Of a stretch of DNA of 41,462 bases, positions 1 to 41,462 are shown piece by piece. This DNA comes from a virus (taxonomy: Duplodnaviria > Heunggongvirae > Uroviricota > Caudoviricetes): the IMG/VR virus record IMGVR_UViG_2778261298_000002, positions 1-41,462 of that record; one strand, written 5' to 3'. A program made the translations under genes and the position numbers. Under the pieces are notes generated by a model. The model was not told the DNA's origin and did not search any database. It worked only from the letters and a program-made list of their open reading frames with translations. Every line of letters starts with the position of its first letter. Position 1 is the stretch's first letter.

Positions 1-2
1 CA

Positions 3-18
3 CTGTTTATCCATACAG
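3..18 (+). promoter_or_regulatory. LexA (SOS) box, distal copy
   Basis: CTGT-N8-ACAG palindrome (aCTGTttatccatACAGt) about 45 bp upstream of the dinI-like start. Confidence 0.5.
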
Positions 19-30
19 TTAAAAATAATG

Positions 31-46
31 CTGTATACAAACACAG
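31..46 (+). promoter_or_regulatory. LexA (SOS) box, proximal copy
   Basis: tgCTGTatacaaacACAGta closely matches the E. coli LexA consensus taCTGT-(AT)4-ACAGta; followed by RBS GGAGGG and ATG at 62. Confidence 0.7.
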
Positions 47-61
47 TATGGAGGGACTTTT

Positions 62-310
62 ATGCGTATTGAAATCTGCATAGCCAAAGAAAAAATGACT
101 AAAATGCCAACCGGTGCTGTGGATGCGTTAAAGGAAGAATTAACCCGACGCATCAGTAAGCGTTATGACGATGTTGAGGTGTTAGTAAAAGCCACCAGCA
201 ATGATGGCCTTTCTGTTACACGCACCGCAGATAAGGATTCTGCAAAAACTTTTGTTCAGGAGACTCTGAAAGATACCTGGGAATCTGCTGACGAGTGGTT
301 TGTTCACTAA
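62..310 (+). CDS. DinI-like DNA-damage-inducible protein (82 aa)
   Basis: Translation [11 protein letters not shown]...[15 protein letters not shown] matches the DinI family in size and conserved C-terminal ETWESADxWF motif; preceded by LexA boxes. Confidence 0.8.
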
Positions 311-560
311 TAAACACGTAAAATCTGTAACGGCTGGAAATCATTCAATACTCGCACTATCGAAAGTTCACCAGCCAACCGCAGCGCGTTCTTGCATACG
401 ACGTGGCTGCGGTCTCAACTCCGTCCCCCACCAATCATGATTGGGCAGTACCAGTACAGCACTAGTAAAAACTGGAAATAAGCAGTCTCAGCAAAATACC
501 GGCCAGACGGTGAGAAGACAAAAAAGATACGCAAAGTAGCCGCGGCCCTTAGTGACATGA

Positions 561-583
561 AATCCCGCTATACGGGCTTTTTT
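561..583 (+). terminator. Weak rho-independent terminator-like hairpin
   Basis: Short stem cccg/cggg followed by TTTTTT, about 250 nt after the dinI-like stop. Confidence 0.3.
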
Positions 584-658
584 GTATCTGCACACGATTG
601 ATTATTAGGTCCGTATAGCTAATAGTGGTATTAACCTACATATAGAATCAGAGACTTT

Positions 659-1354
659 ATGAAAAAGGAAATACTCAAGGCTCTTTGCCCTACATGCGGT
701 GGGTTACGTAACTGCACTGTGCATGGGAAGCTAACCACTAGCTGGGAGGATTCCCAATATCCAGTTTATGGGTACCATTACCATCACCTACTCCAATGCA
801 ATGGCTGTGATACTGTCTTCTATCACCACAACGAACACTTCAGTGAGCATACTACCCACGAATATCGTGATGGTGAATTTGTAGAAACGCCTATAGATAT
901 GATCACTACCTATCCTGCCGCTGAAACATTTCAAGCTCCGATATGGTTATCCAAGCTTGAATCAGTTGATCGTCAGCTCTTTCAAATATTTAATGAAATG
1001 TATTCTTCATATACTTCTGACCATTTCATTCTTTCGTCCATCGGTTTACGGACGATTTTTGATCGAACTGCTGAACTGTTACAAATTCACCCCGGTTTGC
1101 CGCTTGGTGAAAAAGTTGAAAAATTAAAACAAGATGGAGTCATAGGCGACACTGAGGCATGCGTTATATCTTCAGTAATTGATGCAGGAAACGCCGCCGC
1201 ACATCGCAGTTGGAGCCCGAATAAAAGTGAGTTCGAACAAATGCTAGAAGCTATAGAAAGTTTTGTCCAAAGAACTATCTTGGGCAAAAAATCACTTGAA
1301 CATATAACCAAACAACTCCCACCTCGGGTTACAAGACCTAAAAATAGTGCATAA
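659..1354 (+). CDS. Hypothetical protein, N-terminal CxxC...CxxC zinc ribbon plus C-terminal helical domain (possibly DUF4145-like)
   Basis: 231-aa ORF; N-terminus has CPTCGG...CNGCDTVFYHH; C-terminus has GNAAAH motif; own sigma70-like promoter (TTGATT-16-TAATAG at 598-625); occupies the slot where e14 carries mcrA, next to the invertase. Confidence 0.6.
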   Translation: MKKEILKALCPTCGGLRNCTVHGKLTTSWEDSQYPVYGYHYHHLLQCNGCDTVFYHHNEHFSEHTTHEYRDGEFVETPIDMITTYPAAETFQAPIWLSKLESVDRQLFQIFNEMYSSYTSDHFILSSIGLRTIFDRTAELLQIHPGLPLGEKVEKLKQDGVIGDTEACVISSVIDAGNAAAHRSWSPNKSEFEQMLEAIESFVQRTILGKKSLEHITKQLPPRVTRPKNSA

Positions 1355-1380
1355 TCCGCGATCATCAATGTGGCGTAAGG

Positions 1381-1937
1381 CTATGGTTTACTTGCTACAG
1401 GGAATTTTTTATACACCGTTGAAATACCCAGATCATAAATCAGTGCGACTTGCTGCTGATATATTCCCGATTCAATCAACCTGCCAGCCTGCCCCCATTG
1501 TTCTACTGTCAGCTTTGGCTTTCGCCCACCGTTCCTCCCTTCTTGTCGTGCTGCGGCAAAGCCGCCCTAGTACGTTCGACAATAAACTCTCGCTCCATTT
1601 CAGCCAGGGCACCCATCACATGAAAGAAAAAGCGCCCCATTGGTGTGCTGGTATCAATAGCATCCGTCAGGCTGCGAAAATTAACGCCACGTTCGCGCAA
1701 CTCTTCCACCAGCACGACAAGATGCCGCATACTGCGCCCCAGTCGGTCCAGTTTCCAGACCACCAGCGTGTCACCTGCCGATAATGTCCTGAGCAGCTTT
1801 TTCAGTCCTGGTCTGTCGGACTTTGTACCGCTTATCTTGTCTTCAAAAATCAGCTCACATCCTGCACAGTTCAACGCATTACGTTGTAGATCGGTGTTCT
1901 GGTCATTTGTTGATACGCGAACATAGCCAATAAGCAT
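1381..1937 (-). pseudogene. pin: Serine-recombinase DNA invertase (Pin/Gin/Hin family), frameshifted
   Basis: N-terminal 140 aa MLIGYVRVSTNDQNTDLQRNAL...GRFFFHVMGALAEMEREFIVERT is a resolvase catalytic domain; the C-terminal HTH (..EQWGQAGRLIESGI.QQQVALIYDLGISTVYKKFP) is in a different frame downstream of the stop at 1509; span is 557 nt, not a multiple of 3. Confidence 0.75.
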
Positions 1938-1991
1938 GATTGCTCCTCCTGACAAAAACAGGAACGATGCCATTTGCGCGCTATTTCTGCA

Positions 1992-2017
1992 TTTTCATAA
2001 ACGTTGGTTTGGGAGAA
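1992..2017. other. Invertase crossover site (gix/hix/pix-like), left
   Basis: 26-bp ttttcataaacgttggtttgggagaa; its reverse complement TTCTCCCAAACCAACGTTTATGAAAA matches the site at 3899-3924 and the hix/gix consensus (TTCT..AAACC.A.GGTTT..GA.AA). Confidence 0.75.
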
Positions 2018-2377
2018 GCGGCAAAACGGGATGTGGGGACAGGGGAAAATCAGATACCGGACATGGCCTCTTTTGCCAGTGGTGATGGATGGATGAAATT
2101 ACCCAACGGGAAAATCCTGCAATATGGTCGTGGTGCGGTTACGCCGACATTATCGACGCAAACAATGAGAATTACATTCAGCATCCCTTTCCCCAAAAAA
2201 GCGGACTGCGCCATGCTTACTCATTCTGGTGATGGCGGTGCGCCTTTAGGCGCTGGGCGAGGGTTCGTGATGACTGCAGAAGGCCCAACGTTAACCGGCT
2301 TTAATTCTGCTTACAGAACGTCATCAACCAGCGACACGGTATCGATGAATTACAGTTGGTGGGCTGTTGGTGAGTAA
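2018..2377 (+). other. Silent alternative tail-fibre C-terminal cassette (expressed only after inversion)
   Basis: Open frame continuing from the crossover site (..AAKRDVGTGENQIPDMASFASGDGWMKLPNGKILQYG..) with no independent start; followed directly by a tfa-like gene. Confidence 0.6.
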
Positions 2378-2388
2378 TTTTATTCAGG

Positions 2389-2841
2389 GTGATTTATATG
2401 AACGAATATGTTTATAGCGCAAGGCATAATGCTTTTTTCCCTGTGGATATGATTGATAAATATAAATCAGAGGGATGGGATTTATCAGACGCTAAGGAAG
2501 TAAATCAAAATATTATCAGTGAGTTTATGGCTGAACCGCCACAAGGAAAAATCCGTATTGCCGGAGATGATGGGCTGCCTGCGTGGGCAGATATTCCTCC
2601 ACCCACGCATGAAGAGCTTATTGAAATTACTGAATCAGAAAGACAGCTACTAATTAACCAGGCCAACGAATACATGAACAGTAAGCAATGGCCCGGTAAA
2701 GCCGCTATTGGTCGTCTGAAAGGTGAGGAACTGGCGCAATATAATTTGTGGCTGGATTATCTGGATGCACTGGAGCTGGTTGATACCTCCAGTGCGCCAG
2801 ATATTGAATGGCCTACGCCTCCGGCAGTTCAGGCCAGATGA
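2389..2841 (+). CDS. Tail fibre assembly protein (Tfa), alternative-orientation copy
   Basis: 150 aa; C-terminal motif ..LWLDYLDALELVDTSSAPDIEWPTPP typical of Tfa chaperones. Confidence 0.75.
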   Translation: MIYMNEYVYSARHNAFFPVDMIDKYKSEGWDLSDAKEVNQNIISEFMAEPPQGKIRIAGDDGLPAWADIPPPTHEELIEITESERQLLINQANEYMNSKQWPGKAAIGRLKGEELAQYNLWLDYLDALELVDTSSAPDIEWPTPPAVQAR

Positions 2842-3415
2842 CATCCGGCGCGGTGCTGGTATCTGTTGCCGTCACCGCGTCAATGTAATCCAGCACAGCG
2901 TTAAGTCTGGTTGTTTCTGCCTGCGTCAGTTTACGTCCGGCCTGCAATTTCAGTTGAATCAGACTAATGGAAGCCATTGCAGCATCAATCAGTGACTGGC
3001 GCTGTGCTTCTGCCGCGTCTACTGCGGCGCTATGCTGTGCCTCAGTATCGGTCACCCATTTCTCACCATCCCATTTATCGTATGGCGTTAATGGGGCGAT
3101 AGTGGTTGTATTTTCAGGGTAATCACCCGGAGCGGTGATTTCTTTTGATTCTCCTGTTTTGGTGCTATAGACCGTTTCACCGCGATGGTCTGGCACATAT
3201 TCCCATGAATTTAAATCTACAGAGCGACAGATTGCATAACCAGCTTTATGTGTACCTGGTGCATCCAGACAGGAACATGCCGGGATACCGACTCCGACAG
3301 CGAGATATTCAGTTGATGTAGAAATATATTCCCGCGTTTCGCCATCATAGTTATGTACGATGATTTCCCCATCATTTAAAGCGTAACCGTCTTTTCCCAA
3401 AATAGCCTGTTCCAT
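2813..3415 (-). CDS. Tail fibre assembly protein (Tfa), currently expressed orientation
   Basis: 200 aa; C-terminus ..LNAVLDYIDAVTATDTSTAPDVIWPELP; immediately downstream of the fibre gene. Confidence 0.75.
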   Translation of the reverse strand: MEQAILGKDGYALNDGEIIVHNYDGETREYISTSTEYLAVGVGIPACSCLDAPGTHKAGYAICRSVDLNSWEYVPDHRGETVYSTKTGESKEITAPGDYPENTTTIAPLTPYDKWDGEKWVTDTEAQHSAAVDAAEAQRQSLIDAAMASISLIQLKLQAGRKLTQAETTRLNAVLDYIDAVTATDTSTAPDVIWPELPEA

Positions 3416-38300: not shown

Positions 38301-38872
38301 TGAACAACTTAATGATCGACCTTGAGACGATGGGGAAAAATAAGGATGCACCGATCGTTTCCATTGGCGCGGTGTTCTTCACTCCAGAAACCGGAGACAT
38401 CGGACAAGAATTCTATACGGTTGTTAGCCTGGAAAGTGCTATGGGGCAAGGAGCTACACCTGACGGCGATACCATCCTGTGGTGGTTGAAACAAAGCCCT
38501 GAAGCACGAGCTGCAATCTGTATTGATGATACTTTGTCGATCAGCGATGCACTCTCTGAACTGAACCATTTCATTAACCGGCACGCAGACAATACGAAAT
38601 ATTTAAAAGTCTGGGGTAACGGAGCCACCTTCGACAACGTAATTTTACGTGGGGCTTATGAGCGAGCAGGACAAATCTGTCCATGGGCGTACTGGAATGA
38701 CCACGATGTACGCACGATCGTTACGCTTGGGCGTTTCATCGGATTCGACCCCAAAATGGACATGCCTTTCGATGGCGAACGGCACAACGCCCTGGCTGAT
38801 GCCCGTCATCAGGCAAAATATGTTTCCGCTATCTGGCAGAAATTAATTCCTGCCACCAGCACAGAATTATGA
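38297..38872 (+). CDS. 3'-5' exonuclease (DEDD/DnaQ-like fold)
   Basis: 191 aa; N-terminal MIDLETMG (DxE motif), later NGATFD and H..ALADA motifs. Confidence 0.6.
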   Translation: MMNNLMIDLETMGKNKDAPIVSIGAVFFTPETGDIGQEFYTVVSLESAMGQGATPDGDTILWWLKQSPEARAAICIDDTLSISDALSELNHFINRHADNTKYLKVWGNGATFDNVILRGAYERAGQICPWAYWNDHDVRTIVTLGRFIGFDPKMDMPFDGERHNALADARHQAKYVSAIWQKLIPATSTEL

Positions 38873-38881
38873 TTTTCCCGG

Positions 38882-39190
38882 GTGCAGCCGGTTTTGATGG
38901 AGAAAATTATGAACACCTTGTTTTTACTGATGGCTGAATTCAATACCCCTAACATTGAACTCTCAGCAGTTAGCCAAAAGTACTTTGGCATGAGTCCAGC
39001 CACGGCAGAAGCAAAAGCAAACGCTTGTAAGTTGCCAGTTCCAACATATCGCATCGGCACATCACAAAAAGCAAAACGTTGCATCAATATTCAGGATCTT
39101 GCGGAATACATAGACAAAAGACGAGAAGAAGGACGTATCGAGTGGGAACAGGTCAGAACAGGCAAACAGAAGGGCAAAGAACATCACTAA
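38882..39190 (+). CDS. Putative excisionase / DNA-binding protein (Xis or PrtN-like)
   Basis: 102 aa; last gene of the early-left operon before a strong terminator. Confidence 0.45.
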   Translation: MQPVLMEKIMNTLFLLMAEFNTPNIELSAVSQKYFGMSPATAEAKANACKLPVPTYRIGTSQKAKRCINIQDLAEYIDKRREEGRIEWEQVRTGKQKGKEHH

Positions 39191-39191
39191 A

Positions 39192-39218
39192 GAAAAAACC
39201 CGCCTAAAGGCGGGTTTT
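39192..39218. terminator. Bidirectional rho-independent terminator
   Basis: aaaaaaCCCGCCtaaaGGCGGGtttt: 6-bp GC stem, 4-nt loop, A-run before and T-run after. Confidence 0.75.
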
Positions 39219-39237
39219 CAAAAAGCACCAGCTATGA

Positions 39238-39411
39238 TCATGCTGCTTTGCGACGACGAAGCTTACCCTGCTGCTCTTTACCAGAGACAGTAGCGTGAGT
39301 GAACGCATTAGGAGCAGCCTTCATCAGAACTTCAACAGCAGCACCCATACCTGCGAATGCTTTCATTGTGTCGAACTTAACCTGTGGCTTGGTTGCTTTT
39401 TGATCTTTCAT
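39238..39411 (-). CDS. Small hypothetical protein (57 aa, basic C-terminus)
   Basis: Hand translation MKDQKATKPQVKFDTMKAFAGMGAAVEVLMKAAPNAFTHATVSGKEQQGKLRRRKAA; RBS GGGAG 7 nt upstream; below the ORF-track cutoff. Confidence 0.45.
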   Translation of the reverse strand: MKDQKATKPQVKFDTMKAFAGMGAAVEVLMKAAPNAFTHATVSGKEQQGKLRRRKAA

Positions 39412-39607
39412 AGAAAACTCCCGAGACAGTAAAGGCGTCTCTAACCCTCTCTTTAAAGCTAGCTTGTTTCGCTAACTTATGCCAATCGATCATGTCGATT
39501 GGTGACATCGTTTCTTAGTAGTTTAAGCACAAAACGACTGCCATAGATGTACCTTTAAGGTAATCTGGACGGGTATCCTACAATTTGTAGCCCCTTCTCG
39601 TCTATAC

Positions 39608-40144
39608 CTACTGAGCAAATTTAAGAAAGATATCCTGCAGCTCATCAATGACTGCAGACATCACATAACCGCACTGTTCCATGCGGAAACCAAAAGACTC
39701 GTAATACTGCACCAGTTCTGGTACTGGCTCTACAATGTGGACAACTTTACATTCAACAGCTTTACAAAATATAAAAGCACTCATAAGAGTGAGTAAAACC
39801 ATGCGCCCTTTCAATGGGTGAGATTCATCTTCTCTAGAAAACCTTTCGATCATATGGATACGAAAGATGTTTTCTTCAACCCCATAAACACAAATTGCTG
39901 CTCCTGATGGTATTCCCTGAACCCGACCTTGCTGAACAAGTTTTATGCAGAACTCATACTTTTCTCTGGAGTTGCCATAGGTGCTTAACGCATAGTCCCA
40001 TTCAAGCTCACCATAGCCACCACACAGAATCTTGTAATCATCATCACTGAGCGGACCAACAGCAAGAGGTAAGCCGACATGATCAATAATCAACTGGATA
40101 TTGTTACGTACAGATTGACCTATCTCGTCTAGGGTAAGCATCAT
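39608..40144 (-). CDS. Hypothetical protein, possibly GNAT-like acetyltransferase
   Basis: 178 aa; AT-rich gene; weak resemblance to the GNAT acyl-CoA-binding core (..LKGRMVLLTLMSAF...YYESFGFRM). Confidence 0.35.
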   Translation of the reverse strand: MMLTLDEIGQSVRNNIQLIIDHVGLPLAVGPLSDDDYKILCGGYGELEWDYALSTYGNSREKYEFCIKLVQQGRVQGIPSGAAICVYGVEENIFRIHMIERFSREDESHPLKGRMVLLTLMSAFIFCKAVECKVVHIVEPVPELVQYYESFGFRMEQCGYVMSAVIDELQDIFLKFAQ

Positions 40145-40693
40145 AGACTCTCAAGCGGAACACTAAAAATCTCATTATATCTCATTCTGATGCCCCGCAT
40201 GGATTACACCTTGAAATGAAAACACCGGGTTCCCAATAGGCACCCACAAAGTGTATAACTACTTGTTTTTCAAAAACGGTACATCCTATCGAGCATTGGT
40301 GCAACGCTAAACCGACCACTCCAGTGAACGTCAGTTTTTTCAGGCATTGCGCTGGTTTGGTTGATTTTTTGCATTTCAGAATTACCGTGCATTTTCAAAT
40401 GTAGAGATTATTTTATCGATATATCATGGGGTTATGTTATTCAGCATCACTGTTCAGGAGGCTCAATAGCGGGGTACTATACCATAACAACAGGAAGCGC
40501 CTGTCTCATTGCAAAAGAAAATTGAGATCCTCTCAAGGCATGAAGCTCTCACGAAGTGATGGAAATAATCTTATTAGCCGTTAACTTTGTTAAGGCCAAT
40601 GATAAACAATCCAGGTTCGACGATAAATAAAAAATCACACATTAAACTCTGGTGATATATCTCCCTGCTAATAGCATTGATAGAGAAAAAAGA

Positions 40694-40717
40694 ACCCAAT
40701 AAATATTGGGTCCTTTT
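40694..40717 (-). terminator. Rho-independent terminator downstream of the 235-aa gene
   Basis: Hairpin acccaat/attgggt flanked by A- and T-runs. Confidence 0.55.
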
Positions 40718-40754
40718 ATATAATGCCTTCCATACTATCGAAGAACTTCACATA

Positions 40755-41462
40755 TTATTTCTCCGATTTAACCCCGAACAAATCATAAATTAATTTAGAA
40801 GTGTCTGTAAGTATTTTAATCTCTTCCTTTGAGGTTGGGTCAAACGACTTCGCGAAGCTAATTAATTGTGGTGCAGCATCTCGCATTTTGCTTAAAATAT
40901 CAGGATCGAGCGTTCCTTCATTCACCAGATGTGACATCTTATCCAGATAGCCATCAAAATTCATTTCTCCCCCATCAGCCAGACGCTTCATCTCTCCCAG
41001 GTACTTCTTCATATCACGTTGAGATAATTTTTCAAACTGAGCTTTCAGGTAGCTCTCATTATTTTCATTAATATACACTGTTTCTGATAAATCTGCGTAG
41101 GCACTAGAATATGAAAGTGAAATTAACAGCGAAGCAAATAATTTTAAGCTGTTGTCATCATGTTCCTGGCAGGCATTAACAAACGTTAAAAAACCAGAAC
41201 CTATTGCTTGAAAATGTATATTCGCTAAAGGTTCATTATCCTTAGATTCCTCATAAAATAGCTGAACCGTGGAGGGAAGGTCATTCTTAGTTTCTACATC
41301 AAAAGTACATTGTTCAATGGGCATTGCATCTTTATTATCCCCAAGATTACATATACTATTAATCGCGAAATGAAAAATAGCCCGGTCAACAACTGATGCA
41401 ATAAAGTCACGATCGTTTAAATCCTCATCAGTGCAATCGTCAATATACTTATTGACCCACAT
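40755..41462 (-). CDS. Hypothetical protein (235 aa in window; start codon sits at the window edge, may extend beyond)
   Basis: AT-rich ORF with no recognisable family. Confidence 0.4.
   Translation of the reverse strand: MWVNKYIDDCTDEDLNDRDFIASVVDRAIFHFAINSICNLGDNKDAMPIEQCTFDVETKNDLPSTVQLFYEESKDNEPLANIHFQAIGSGFLTFVNACQEHDDNSLKLFASLLISLSYSSAYADLSETVYINENNESYLKAQFEKLSQRDMKKYLGEMKRLADGGEMNFDGYLDKMSHLVNEGTLDPDILSKMRDAAPQLISFAKSFDPTSKEEIKILTDTSKLIYDLFGVKSEK

Follow-up and report, generated by a model that had tools for sequence, protein, structure and literature searches.

Integrative elements in dusA

The architecture of the locus considered here has already been published, for integrative elements specific for dusA. 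Such an element brings with it a new 5' end for the gene, and the original 5' end is left as its outer boundary (Farrugia 2015, NAR, PMC4482086). The elements are flanked by imperfect direct repeats, with a 21-bp semi-conserved att consensus, and 64% of the islands carry homologues of prtN, which are therefore not strictly defining (Farrugia 2015, PMC4482086).

The 41,462 nucleotides of viral DNA under analysis (the window) compare closely with this scheme. The insertion point falls within the 5' end of dusA at a conserved site, codons 33-35, the original 5' end of the gene stands at the integrase-distal boundary and is followed by host yjbM, a homologue of PrtN is present, the cargo is variable, and a tyrosine integrase adjoins a rebuilt dusA, as seen in the genomes CFS3292 and GPEC1240. 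Set against the published elements (PMC4482086), nothing essential is different; the cut of the window just excludes int and the rebuilt dusA.

Phage mEp460 (JQ182728 / NC_019716) provides the same locus in another state. Positions 39194-40395 of the window are 96.9% identical to it, and its genes run in the order exonuclease, PrtN-type excisionase, 57-aa gene, 178-aa gene, attP with a dusA-like 5' end, int, DinI. The phage represents the free attP form, with int after the dusA-like segment, whereas the window represents the integrated form, with the host's copy and yjbM. The segment in mEp460 is a phage surrogate, with 71% amino-acid identity to DusA 1-35. The two phages differ in their tails: the annotation of mEp460 gives it a lambda-like side tail fibre, while the window encodes a sheath and baseplate J. 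The window's tail-fibre invertase gene is frameshifted.

It is very probable, then, that the region from 39192 to 41462 is the integrase-distal junction of a temperate prophage of the myovirus type, about 41 kb long and with a lambdoid early region, together with about 1.2 kb of flanking chromosome. With equal confidence the prophage can be placed in the 5' end of E. coli dusA, inserted there by a dusA-specific tyrosine integrase. That degree of confidence belongs to the architecture and not to the function of the cargo. The main value of this reading is corrective. An earlier note, made from the sequence alone, saw in this region AT-rich cargo genes where an integrase was expected. The impression of a missing integrase and an acquired island arises because prophages of this specificity place int and xis at opposite ends, and because each end of the window falls one gene further right than it should, so that int is lost and host yjbM taken in.

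Table 1. Features at the integrase-distal end of the prophage, with the marker of its other end
Feature	Position	Strand	Evidence or remark
DinI-like gene	62..310	+	Pfam DinI 1e-19; marks integrase-proximal prophage end
PrtN-family excisionase / recombination directionality factor	38882..39190	+	Pfam PyocinActivator 4e-23; PHROG 1300 'excisionase' 8e-40
Intrinsic terminator hairpin	39194..39219	.	Common to the convergent excisionase and cargo transcripts
57-aa basic small protein	39238..39411	-	PHROG 2741, 8e-36; downstream partner of GNAT-fold gene
Inter-gene spacer, 196 nt, small hairpins	39412..39607	-	90-200 nt in other genera
178-aa divergent GNAT-fold protein, putative acyltransferase	39608..40144	-	Predicted fold
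Phage P' arm of attachment site	40145..40288	-	Agrees with mEp460 attP but for a few mismatches; unlike K-12 as far as 40288
Crossover core TCGAGCAT	40289..40296	.	dusA strand ATGCTCGA, codons M33-L34-D35; phage/chromosome junction
Native host dusA 5' stump, codons 1-35	40289..40392	-	100% identical to K-12 DusA residues 1-35
Host dusA upstream region	40393..40754	-	2 mismatches to K-12 over 40289-40760 (472 bases)
Host yjbM, 235 aa	40755..41462	-	Pfam DUF2713 4.4e-166, residues 1-235 of 235

The junction of phage and chromosome

Everything from 40289 to 41462 is E. coli chromosome, consisting of the native 5' stump of dusA, the region upstream of that gene, and yjbM. The stump is annotated in complete genomes as a partial tRNA-dihydrouridine synthase. 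Its reading frame continues through five phage-encoded codons to a stop at 40270-40272. Surrogate copies borne by phages share 69-74% identity with K-12 DusA 1-35, as opposed to the complete identity of the stump. The upstream region holds a putative promoter at 40593-40565 (TTAACA-17-GATTAT, from a promoter scan) and, by a terminator scan, the terminator hairpin of yjbM at 40688-40717. The last of the three genes, a protein of 235 amino acids that the earlier note left as an unknown, is by profile search the product of yjbM and is not part of the prophage. Gene order in K-12 is zur-yjbL-yjbM-dusA, an order seen in other genomes as well, and a query comprising yjbM, the dusA upstream region, and the stump (40200-41462) is at least 80% covered in 4032 of 5426 complete E. 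coli genomes.

To the left of the core, from 39192 to 40288, the DNA belongs to the phage and carries the terminator and the genes for the 57-aa and 178-aa proteins. The last base specific to the phage is 40288 and the first specific to the host is 40297, as judged by alignment and a map of mismatches. Between them, within dusA codons 33-35, lies TCGAGCAT, the 8-bp core of the crossover, at 40289-40296. When the window junction, K-12 attB, the opposite junction of CFS3292, and mEp460 attP are aligned, this is the sole block identical in all four, and it is within TCGAGCAT that recombination took place. The stump and the core together give the exact coordinates of the prophage. The earlier note had overlooked both of them.

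The P' arm has some features of its own. Its part nearest the core, 40228-40288, is common to other dusA phages. PhiR40_1, 1720a-02, and PhiR55_1 match 40228-40306, and each of their records stops either at its match or no more than about 80 bases from it. The arm's minus strand offers a perfect -10 sequence, TATAAT, at 40179-40174, with no good -35, and there is a GGTTCCC motif at about 40234-40240. A repeat search of mEp460 attP found one 10-bp inverted repeat flanking the core, CGGGTTCCCA/TGGGAACCCG, a candidate arm site, one short repeat alone being not significant. The two junctions form an imperfect direct repeat, identical at 92 of 115 positions counted outward from the core. An att site of the tRNA type was considered and rejected, there being no tRNA gene in the window.

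The low GC content that had suggested foreign DNA is real. At 39.8%, the region from 39192 to 41462 is the minimum among all 2271-bp windows of the stretch, whose mean is 51%. Most of the AT-richness, however, is chromosomal: GC content is 37.0% in 40297-41462 and 36.4% in yjbM, while the phage arm, at 42.8%, is close to the adjacent early region (45.3%).

The integrase and the other end of the prophage

No integrase is found in 39192-41462, just as the earlier note had said. What can be said of the far end comes from near-identical genomes rather than from the source genome. CFS3292 is 100% identical to positions 1-2018, and in that genome the stop codon of int ends 1 base before window position 1. 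The gene, whose product hits Pfam Phage_integrase at 8e-21, and an intact dusA point away from each other, and the 5' end of that dusA matches mEp460 attP. GPEC1240, with a right end 99.9% identical to that of the window, has the same layout at its far end, so that both genomes read dusA, int, DinI. The succession of int and DinI is found again in mEp460, and the window opens with the DinI-like gene (Table 1), which has two sites resembling LexA boxes (CTG-N10-CAG) at 3-18 and 31-46.

These genomes and mEp460 show that attP of the phage lies between the cargo and int, and that after integration int and the 5' end of dusA supplied by the phage are found at the other end of the prophage, directly to the left of window position 1, where they keep dusA intact. 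The arrangement of lambda, with int beside xis at one end of the prophage, is not what is found; the two are at opposite ends. With attP between int and the cargo on the excisionase side, as in mEp460, no integrase would ever be expected beside the excisionase in the prophage.

In many lambdoid prophages int is found beside xis. With this in mind, and with no int in the window, one might suppose that int, a tRNA, and att repeats lie just past the right end and that all three genes are cargo within the element. The earlier note was right to allow for an integrase beyond the window, but the side it proposed is that of the E. coli chromosome. From 40289 onward there are 2 mismatches to K-12 in 472 bases, complete genomes run on past the stump and yjbM into zur, yjbJ, dinF, and lexA, the att core is already inside the region, no tRNA is present, and relatives have int at the other end. 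The supposition is refuted, and I would leave it hardly any room. Another possibility is that the prophage is decaying, having lost its integrase and acquired an AT-rich foreign island at its end. The minimum in GC content would agree with this, as would the frameshift in the tail-fibre invertase and a far end that is outside the window. Against it, the cargo and arm are 97% identical to the sequenced genome of mEp460, in which int adjoins attP. Moreover, int is still present in prophages with this right end or the identical left end, the GC minimum falls in host yjbM and not in an acquired island, and the start of the window coincides with the end of int in relatives, which points to an effect of trimming at the boundary. 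Decay is thus very improbable, and the dusA-specific prophage with int at its far end is the reading I adopt. The earlier note had allowed that the genes might prove to be conserved chromosomal ones, with an ordinary integrase and att site just beyond. Half of this is so: one of them is a conserved chromosomal gene, and the att site is an ordinary one, inside the region.

The cargo slot

Most of what was first remarked about the phage part of the region stands. The Xis-like gene is an excisionase of the PrtN family and the final early gene on the plus strand. The strong bidirectional terminator that follows has an 11-bp stem, 6 of its pairs G-C, and a 4-nt loop, with a run of T on the minus strand and TTTT after the stem on the plus strand. 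Against Rfam, 38800-41462 yielded no match above threshold, and the weaker ones were driven by this terminator. There are indeed three minus-strand open reading frames, of 57, 178, and 235 aa, with long spacers of 196 nt between the first two and 610 nt between the 178-aa and 235-aa frames. As a set of three cargo genes, however, they do not hold together: the first two are phage cargo and the third is a gene of the host, so this is not one unit.

The cargo carried between excisionase and attP varies, and this slot is a small exchange hotspot of common E. coli prophages. The cargo arm exactly as in the window is carried by at least 356 of 5426 complete E. coli genomes. In sister dusA prophages the slot holds Panacea (PanA) toxin-antitoxin pairs (Kurata et al. 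2022 PNAS, PMC8832971), as in CFS3292, Lys8385Vzw, SKA5, 2017.17.03CC, and I2, and several of these pairs are directly upstream of the 57-aa gene. No Panacea domain is encoded in the window, and its relation to those pairs is one of position only.

The 178-aa protein was called GNAT-like, which is correct at the level of the fold: the structure is confidently predicted and has the alpha/beta fold of GNAT proteins. No Pfam model matches it. The fold is equally close to N-terminal protein acetyltransferases (NatD, RimI) and to TacT/AtaT. Read by eye, motif A, which in GNAT proteins binds the pyrophosphate of acetyl-CoA, is degenerate, H109-P-L-K-G113-R-M in place of the consensus Q/R-x-x-G-x-G/A. 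The superfamily is marked by a catalytic Tyr/Glu as well; Y148, in YYESFGF, is invariant through the whole family. A Pfam scan of 47 distant members of the family found no GNAT model, and when the family profile was compared with E. coli RimI by hhalign, nothing but the YESFGF motif was aligned, with a probability of 3.9%. A profile search of PDB sequences returned coiled-coil and armadillo matches only, which were judged spurious.

The 57-aa protein is indeed basic, with 9 K and 3 R against 4 D/E, and has 48 homologue clusters. Its AF2 model is mostly disordered apart from a helix at residues 15-32, and with a pLDDT of 60.7 the confidence is low enough that no fold search was based on it. In 29 of the 29 loci examined, the gene is directly downstream of the GNAT-fold gene, and the pair is spread over numerous genera and no fewer than four phage contexts. 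The spacer between them has no match to an Rfam family, and its conservation against Citrobacter is only patchy. Sequence upstream of the cassette shows no conservation from one phage context to another; the cassette therefore does not bring a common promoter along. The 57-aa gene is also found without the GNAT gene, in slots bearing Panacea pairs, and the two may therefore be independent.

Possible functions of the cargo

Known GNAT toxins are paired with an upstream, overlapping RHH antitoxin whose translation is coupled to theirs. The present pair differs from these type II systems (TacAT, AtaRT, KacAT, ItaRT) in that the partner is downstream, only 57 aa long, and free of RHH/DUF1778, and no similarity to them is seen at the level of sequence.

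My leading guess, a tentative one, is that the pair works as an accessory module, of toxin-antitoxin or defence-like character. If so, the GNAT protein might be an effector that acetylates a component of translation or a protein N-terminus, with the small protein perhaps its neutraliser or its partner. In a lysogen, the cargo would be transcribed from the orphaned host dusA promoter, from the weak P' arm promoter with its -10 sequence only, or from both, and transcription would stop at the shared terminator. It is possible, if doubtful, that we have here an undescribed mobile toxin-antitoxin or anti-phage module of enterobacterial prophages, with a GNAT effector and a minimal, non-RHH downstream neutraliser, that swaps with Panacea pairs at a hotspot beside attP and is driven in lysogens by the orphaned promoter of dusA. 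Several observations count against a toxin and its antitoxin: a partner downstream, 90-200 nt away, and without a DNA-binding domain, no match in PADLOC for either protein, a fold as near to NatD and RimI as to TacT and AtaT, the degenerate motif A (HPLKGRM), and the occurrence of the 57-aa gene without its GNAT companion.

A rival reading makes the GNAT-fold protein an acetyltransferase of lysogenic conversion or counter-defence, resembling AcrVA5-type enzymes, that would act on the N-terminus or a lysine of a protein of the host or of an incoming phage. The 57-aa gene would then stand on its own, or its product would serve as cofactor or substrate, and it would not be an antitoxin. I regard this, too, as a tentative suggestion. 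Against it, the GNAT gene was never seen without the small gene in the 29 loci, and the slot otherwise holds toxin-antitoxin modules. One could also dismiss both frames as functionless noise of annotation in an att arm, since neither product has a match in Pfam or NCBIfam and both are annotated 'hypothetical' everywhere. Conservation refutes this in practice and leaves it a vanishingly small chance: both are conserved as proteins from Escherichia to Shewanella, with invariant residues, gene order is kept in unrelated phage contexts, and the 178-aa protein folds confidently in the model.

The secondary value of the analysis is a lead: the pair is a conserved family that has no Pfam model, and assays of toxicity, neutralisation, and phage defence would be cheap. 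Literature searches on mEp460 and on GNAT proteins in prophages or anti-phage defence brought up no title or abstract dealing with the cassette, and it is not in PADLOC v2. It resembles prophage morons and the defence hotspots that lie at prophage ends or between Q and the lysis genes in being compact, in ending at a terminator, and in having a GC content below that of the structural genes. In other phages it occupies the classic positions of morons: behind antiterminator Q, within clusters of tail genes, and at the end of the prophage.

The junction with dusA

Judged by its sequence, the right third of 39192-41462 is host chromosome. The 235-aa ORF, which the earlier note counted as cargo of unknown kind, is a full-length DUF2713 protein (4.4e-166, Pfam), namely K-12 yjbM, directly upstream of dusA, and of 5426 complete E. 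coli genomes, 4032 cover at least 80% of 40200-41462. A short ORF is found between the 178-aa gene and yjbM; its first 35 codons match residues 1-35 of K-12 DusA at 100% identity, and its annotation in complete genomes is that of a partial tRNA-dihydrouridine synthase.

A four-way alignment with a mismatch map compared the junction in this window with the unoccupied K-12 site, with the opposite junction from E. coli CFS3292 (host to a sister prophage) and with attP of the free phage mEp460. The window tracks mEp460 attP through 40288 and K-12 from 40297 on (2 mismatches in 472 bases), and the opposite junction has the reciprocal pattern of phage and host identity. The sole block common to all four sequences is TCGAGCAT, dusA codons M33-L34-D35. 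In the records of PhiR40_1, 1720a-02 and PhiR55_1, matches to the junction fall at the record ends or no more than about 80 bases from them.

Features of the window
Feature	Coordinates	Strand	Basis
DinI-like gene	62-310		
DUF4145 protein, 231 aa	659-1354	+	PHROG 1305
Gin/Cin-type invertase, truncated, 154 aa	1509-1973	-	resolvase N-terminal domain
Tail-fibre and assembly genes	1940-3415	opposed	
PrtN-family excisionase	38882-39190	+	Pfam 4e-23; PHROG 'excisionase' 8e-40
Hairpin	39194-39219		11-bp stem, 4-nt loop
57-aa basic protein	39238-39411	-	ORF
Spacer, 196 nt	39412-39607		
178-aa GNAT-fold protein	39608-40144	-	ORF, predicted fold
Conserved P' arm of the attachment site	40228-40288		
Core (crossover)	40289-40296		four-way alignment
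yjbM, 235 aa	40755-41462	-	DUF2713 full length

Much of the first description holds. The three minus-strand ORFs are there, the label "Xis-like" is fair for the PrtN-family gene, and the proposed terminator is a G+C-rich hairpin with A and T runs on either side, beginning 3 nt past that gene's stop codon. The region is indeed low in GC (39.8% against a window mean of 51%, below every other 2271-bp window), lacks an integrase, and no tRNA occurs anywhere in the window. The idea of an AT-rich cargo island survives in part: two of the three genes are phage cargo, but the extreme AT-richness stems from the host yjbM region (36-37% GC), the phage arm 39192-40288 being at 42.8%, not far from the 45.3% of the early region.

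The DUF2713 locus varies among strains, being one gene of about 340 aa in E. coli I2, separate yjbL and yjbM in K-12, and a frameshifted annotation in others. yjbM resembles the C-terminal part of the longer gene (compare L037 4432-5192 and L004 2322-3307, two comparison sequences), and the locus, at 36% GC, may itself be old foreign DNA.

An inverted repeat, CGGGTTCCCA/TGGGAACCCG, lies on either side of the core (mEp460 attP, L001 6033-6042 and 6260-6269; about 40233-40242 in the window), with more copies of GGTTCCC in the arm on the int side. They are candidates for arm-type sites of the integrase, a single short motif not being significant by itself.

The integrase at the other end

Phage mEp460 is arranged as exonuclease, PrtN-type excisionase, 57-aa gene, 178-aa gene, attP with a dusA-like 5' end, int, DinI and tail fibre. 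attP lies between the cargo and int, and integration therefore parts excisionase and cargo, at one end, from int and DinI, at the other. The window opens with the DinI-like gene, and E. coli CFS3292 is 100% identical to window 1-2018. In that strain a 365-aa tyrosine recombinase, divergent from an intact dusA, ends just one base short of window position 1. In GPEC1240 the right end is 99.9% identical, with dusA, int and DinI some 41 kb to its left. From these two layouts it follows that the integrase is outside the window, as the earlier note allowed, but on the left, at the opposite prophage end. Each limit of the window coincides with the edge of a gene: position 1 directly follows the stop codon of int, and 41462 is where the yjbM start codon begins. 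The provirus call is thus one gene too far right on both sides, so that it misses int and takes in a host gene.

Two LexA-box-like sites stand directly upstream of the DinI-like gene, within window 1-50 (CTGTTTATCCATACAG at 3-18 and CTGTATACAAACACAG at 31-46), and the sequence suggests that this int-adjacent gene is SOS-regulated.

The architecture of this prophage end is ordinary and already described; the puzzle disappears once the stump of dusA and the core are recognized. It is the same as that of the dusA-specific integrative elements in the account of Farrugia et al. 2015 (PMC4482086), which insert into the 5' end of dusA, bring their own replacement 5' end, leave the original one as their outer boundary, and carry a prtN homologue in 64% of islands. 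A review (PMC8065619) places dusA and yjbM among the insertion sites of Stx phages.

A slot for variable cargo

In sister dusA prophages the stretch between excisionase and attP holds other genes, bounded on one side by either the 57-aa gene or the terminator of the excisionase and on the other by the conserved P' arm. These are Panacea-domain antitoxin genes (Pfam SocA_Panacea, 2e-19 and 5e-20), with a different small gene after each: 193 aa and 153 aa in CFS3292, 190 and 139 aa in Lys8385Vzw and SKA5, 190 and 128 aa in strains 2017.17.03CC and I2. Panacea being an established toxin-antitoxin domain (PMC8832971), the slot amounts to a small hotspot of modules that resemble toxin-antitoxin systems.

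The pair in this window travels together. In every one of the 29 loci examined, the gene immediately downstream of the GNAT-fold gene is a homologue of the small one; the genera include Escherichia, Pseudescherichia, Franconibacter, Enterobacter, Citrobacter, Edwardsiella, Photorhabdus, Xenorhabdus, Brenneria and Shewanella. The pair occupies at least four phage contexts: adjoining attP (this window), after antiterminator Q and before the lysis genes in Citrobacter (lysis genes likewise follow closely on the copy in Edwardsiella), within a tail gene cluster (Photorhabdus) and at an apparent prophage end (Shewanella). The converse fails, since several E. coli prophages keep the small gene without the GNAT gene, and about 240 genomes match only the small-gene part of the query.

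The spacer between the cargo genes carries small hairpins, such as CCAATCGA-CATGA-TCGATTGG; the region of that hairpin is partly kept in Citrobacter, where one base in the 5' half of the stem differs. The spacer matched no Rfam family.

What the cargo may do

Four things are established: where the junction lies, what each part is, that the pairing is conserved and that the slot is a hotspot. The 178-aa protein has no match in Pfam, NCBIfam or PADLOC. Its confident model (pLDDT 86.6, pTM 0.85) predicts a GNAT fold, bearing out the first impression; Foldseek returns 341 PDB matches at E<=1e-3, with AtaT, TacT3, KacT, RimI, Gcn5 and SpeG among the top ones. The GNAT C-terminal motif YYESFGF is present, and Y148 is invariant throughout a small family (94 clusters at 50% identity). 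The 57-aa protein is well conserved and predicted to be mostly disordered, with a single helix.

I propose that the pair is an accessory module and that in a lysogen transcription from the orphaned promoter region of host dusA would run through the 40-codon stump ORF into it. A promoter-like site lies at 40593-40565, no convincing terminator was found before 39219, and the P' arm offers only a -10 TATAAT (40179-40174) without a -35.

The leading guess, a tentative one, is that the pair is a toxin-antitoxin or defence-like system, with the GNAT protein as the effector, which the small disordered protein would neutralize. The neighbours in the hotspot, the asymmetric co-occurrence of the two genes and the likeness to tRNA-acetylating toxins argue for it. 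However, the pair differs from GNAT-RHH systems in gene order, in its 90-200-nt spacing and in having no RHH domain; PADLOC does not match it; and the fold is equally close to N-terminal protein acetyltransferases. An equally plausible, and equally tentative, rival is that the enzyme acetylates a host or phage protein, serving lysogenic conversion or counter-defence.

In Photorhabdus temperata (L035 4001-4800) the GNAT homologue is broken into two ORF pieces and the small gene downstream is intact, a pattern of decay that fits a dispensable or toxic GNAT protein with a harmless partner.

The rest of the prophage

The rest of the window, with a CI-like repressor, TerL, HK97-type capsid protein, tail sheath, baseplate J and a DNA methylase, looks like a complete temperate phage. 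Between DinI and the invertase sits the AT-rich DUF4145 gene, whose product has N-terminal CxxC pairs. Because the gene is missing from the GPEC1240 sister prophage, it may mark another slot for variable cargo, at the prophage end nearer the integrase. CFS3292 has the identical invertase sequence, annotated there as frameshifted, whereas the GPEC1240 gene is intact (187 aa). The adjoining tail-fibre and assembly genes resemble an invertible segment, which is probably locked.
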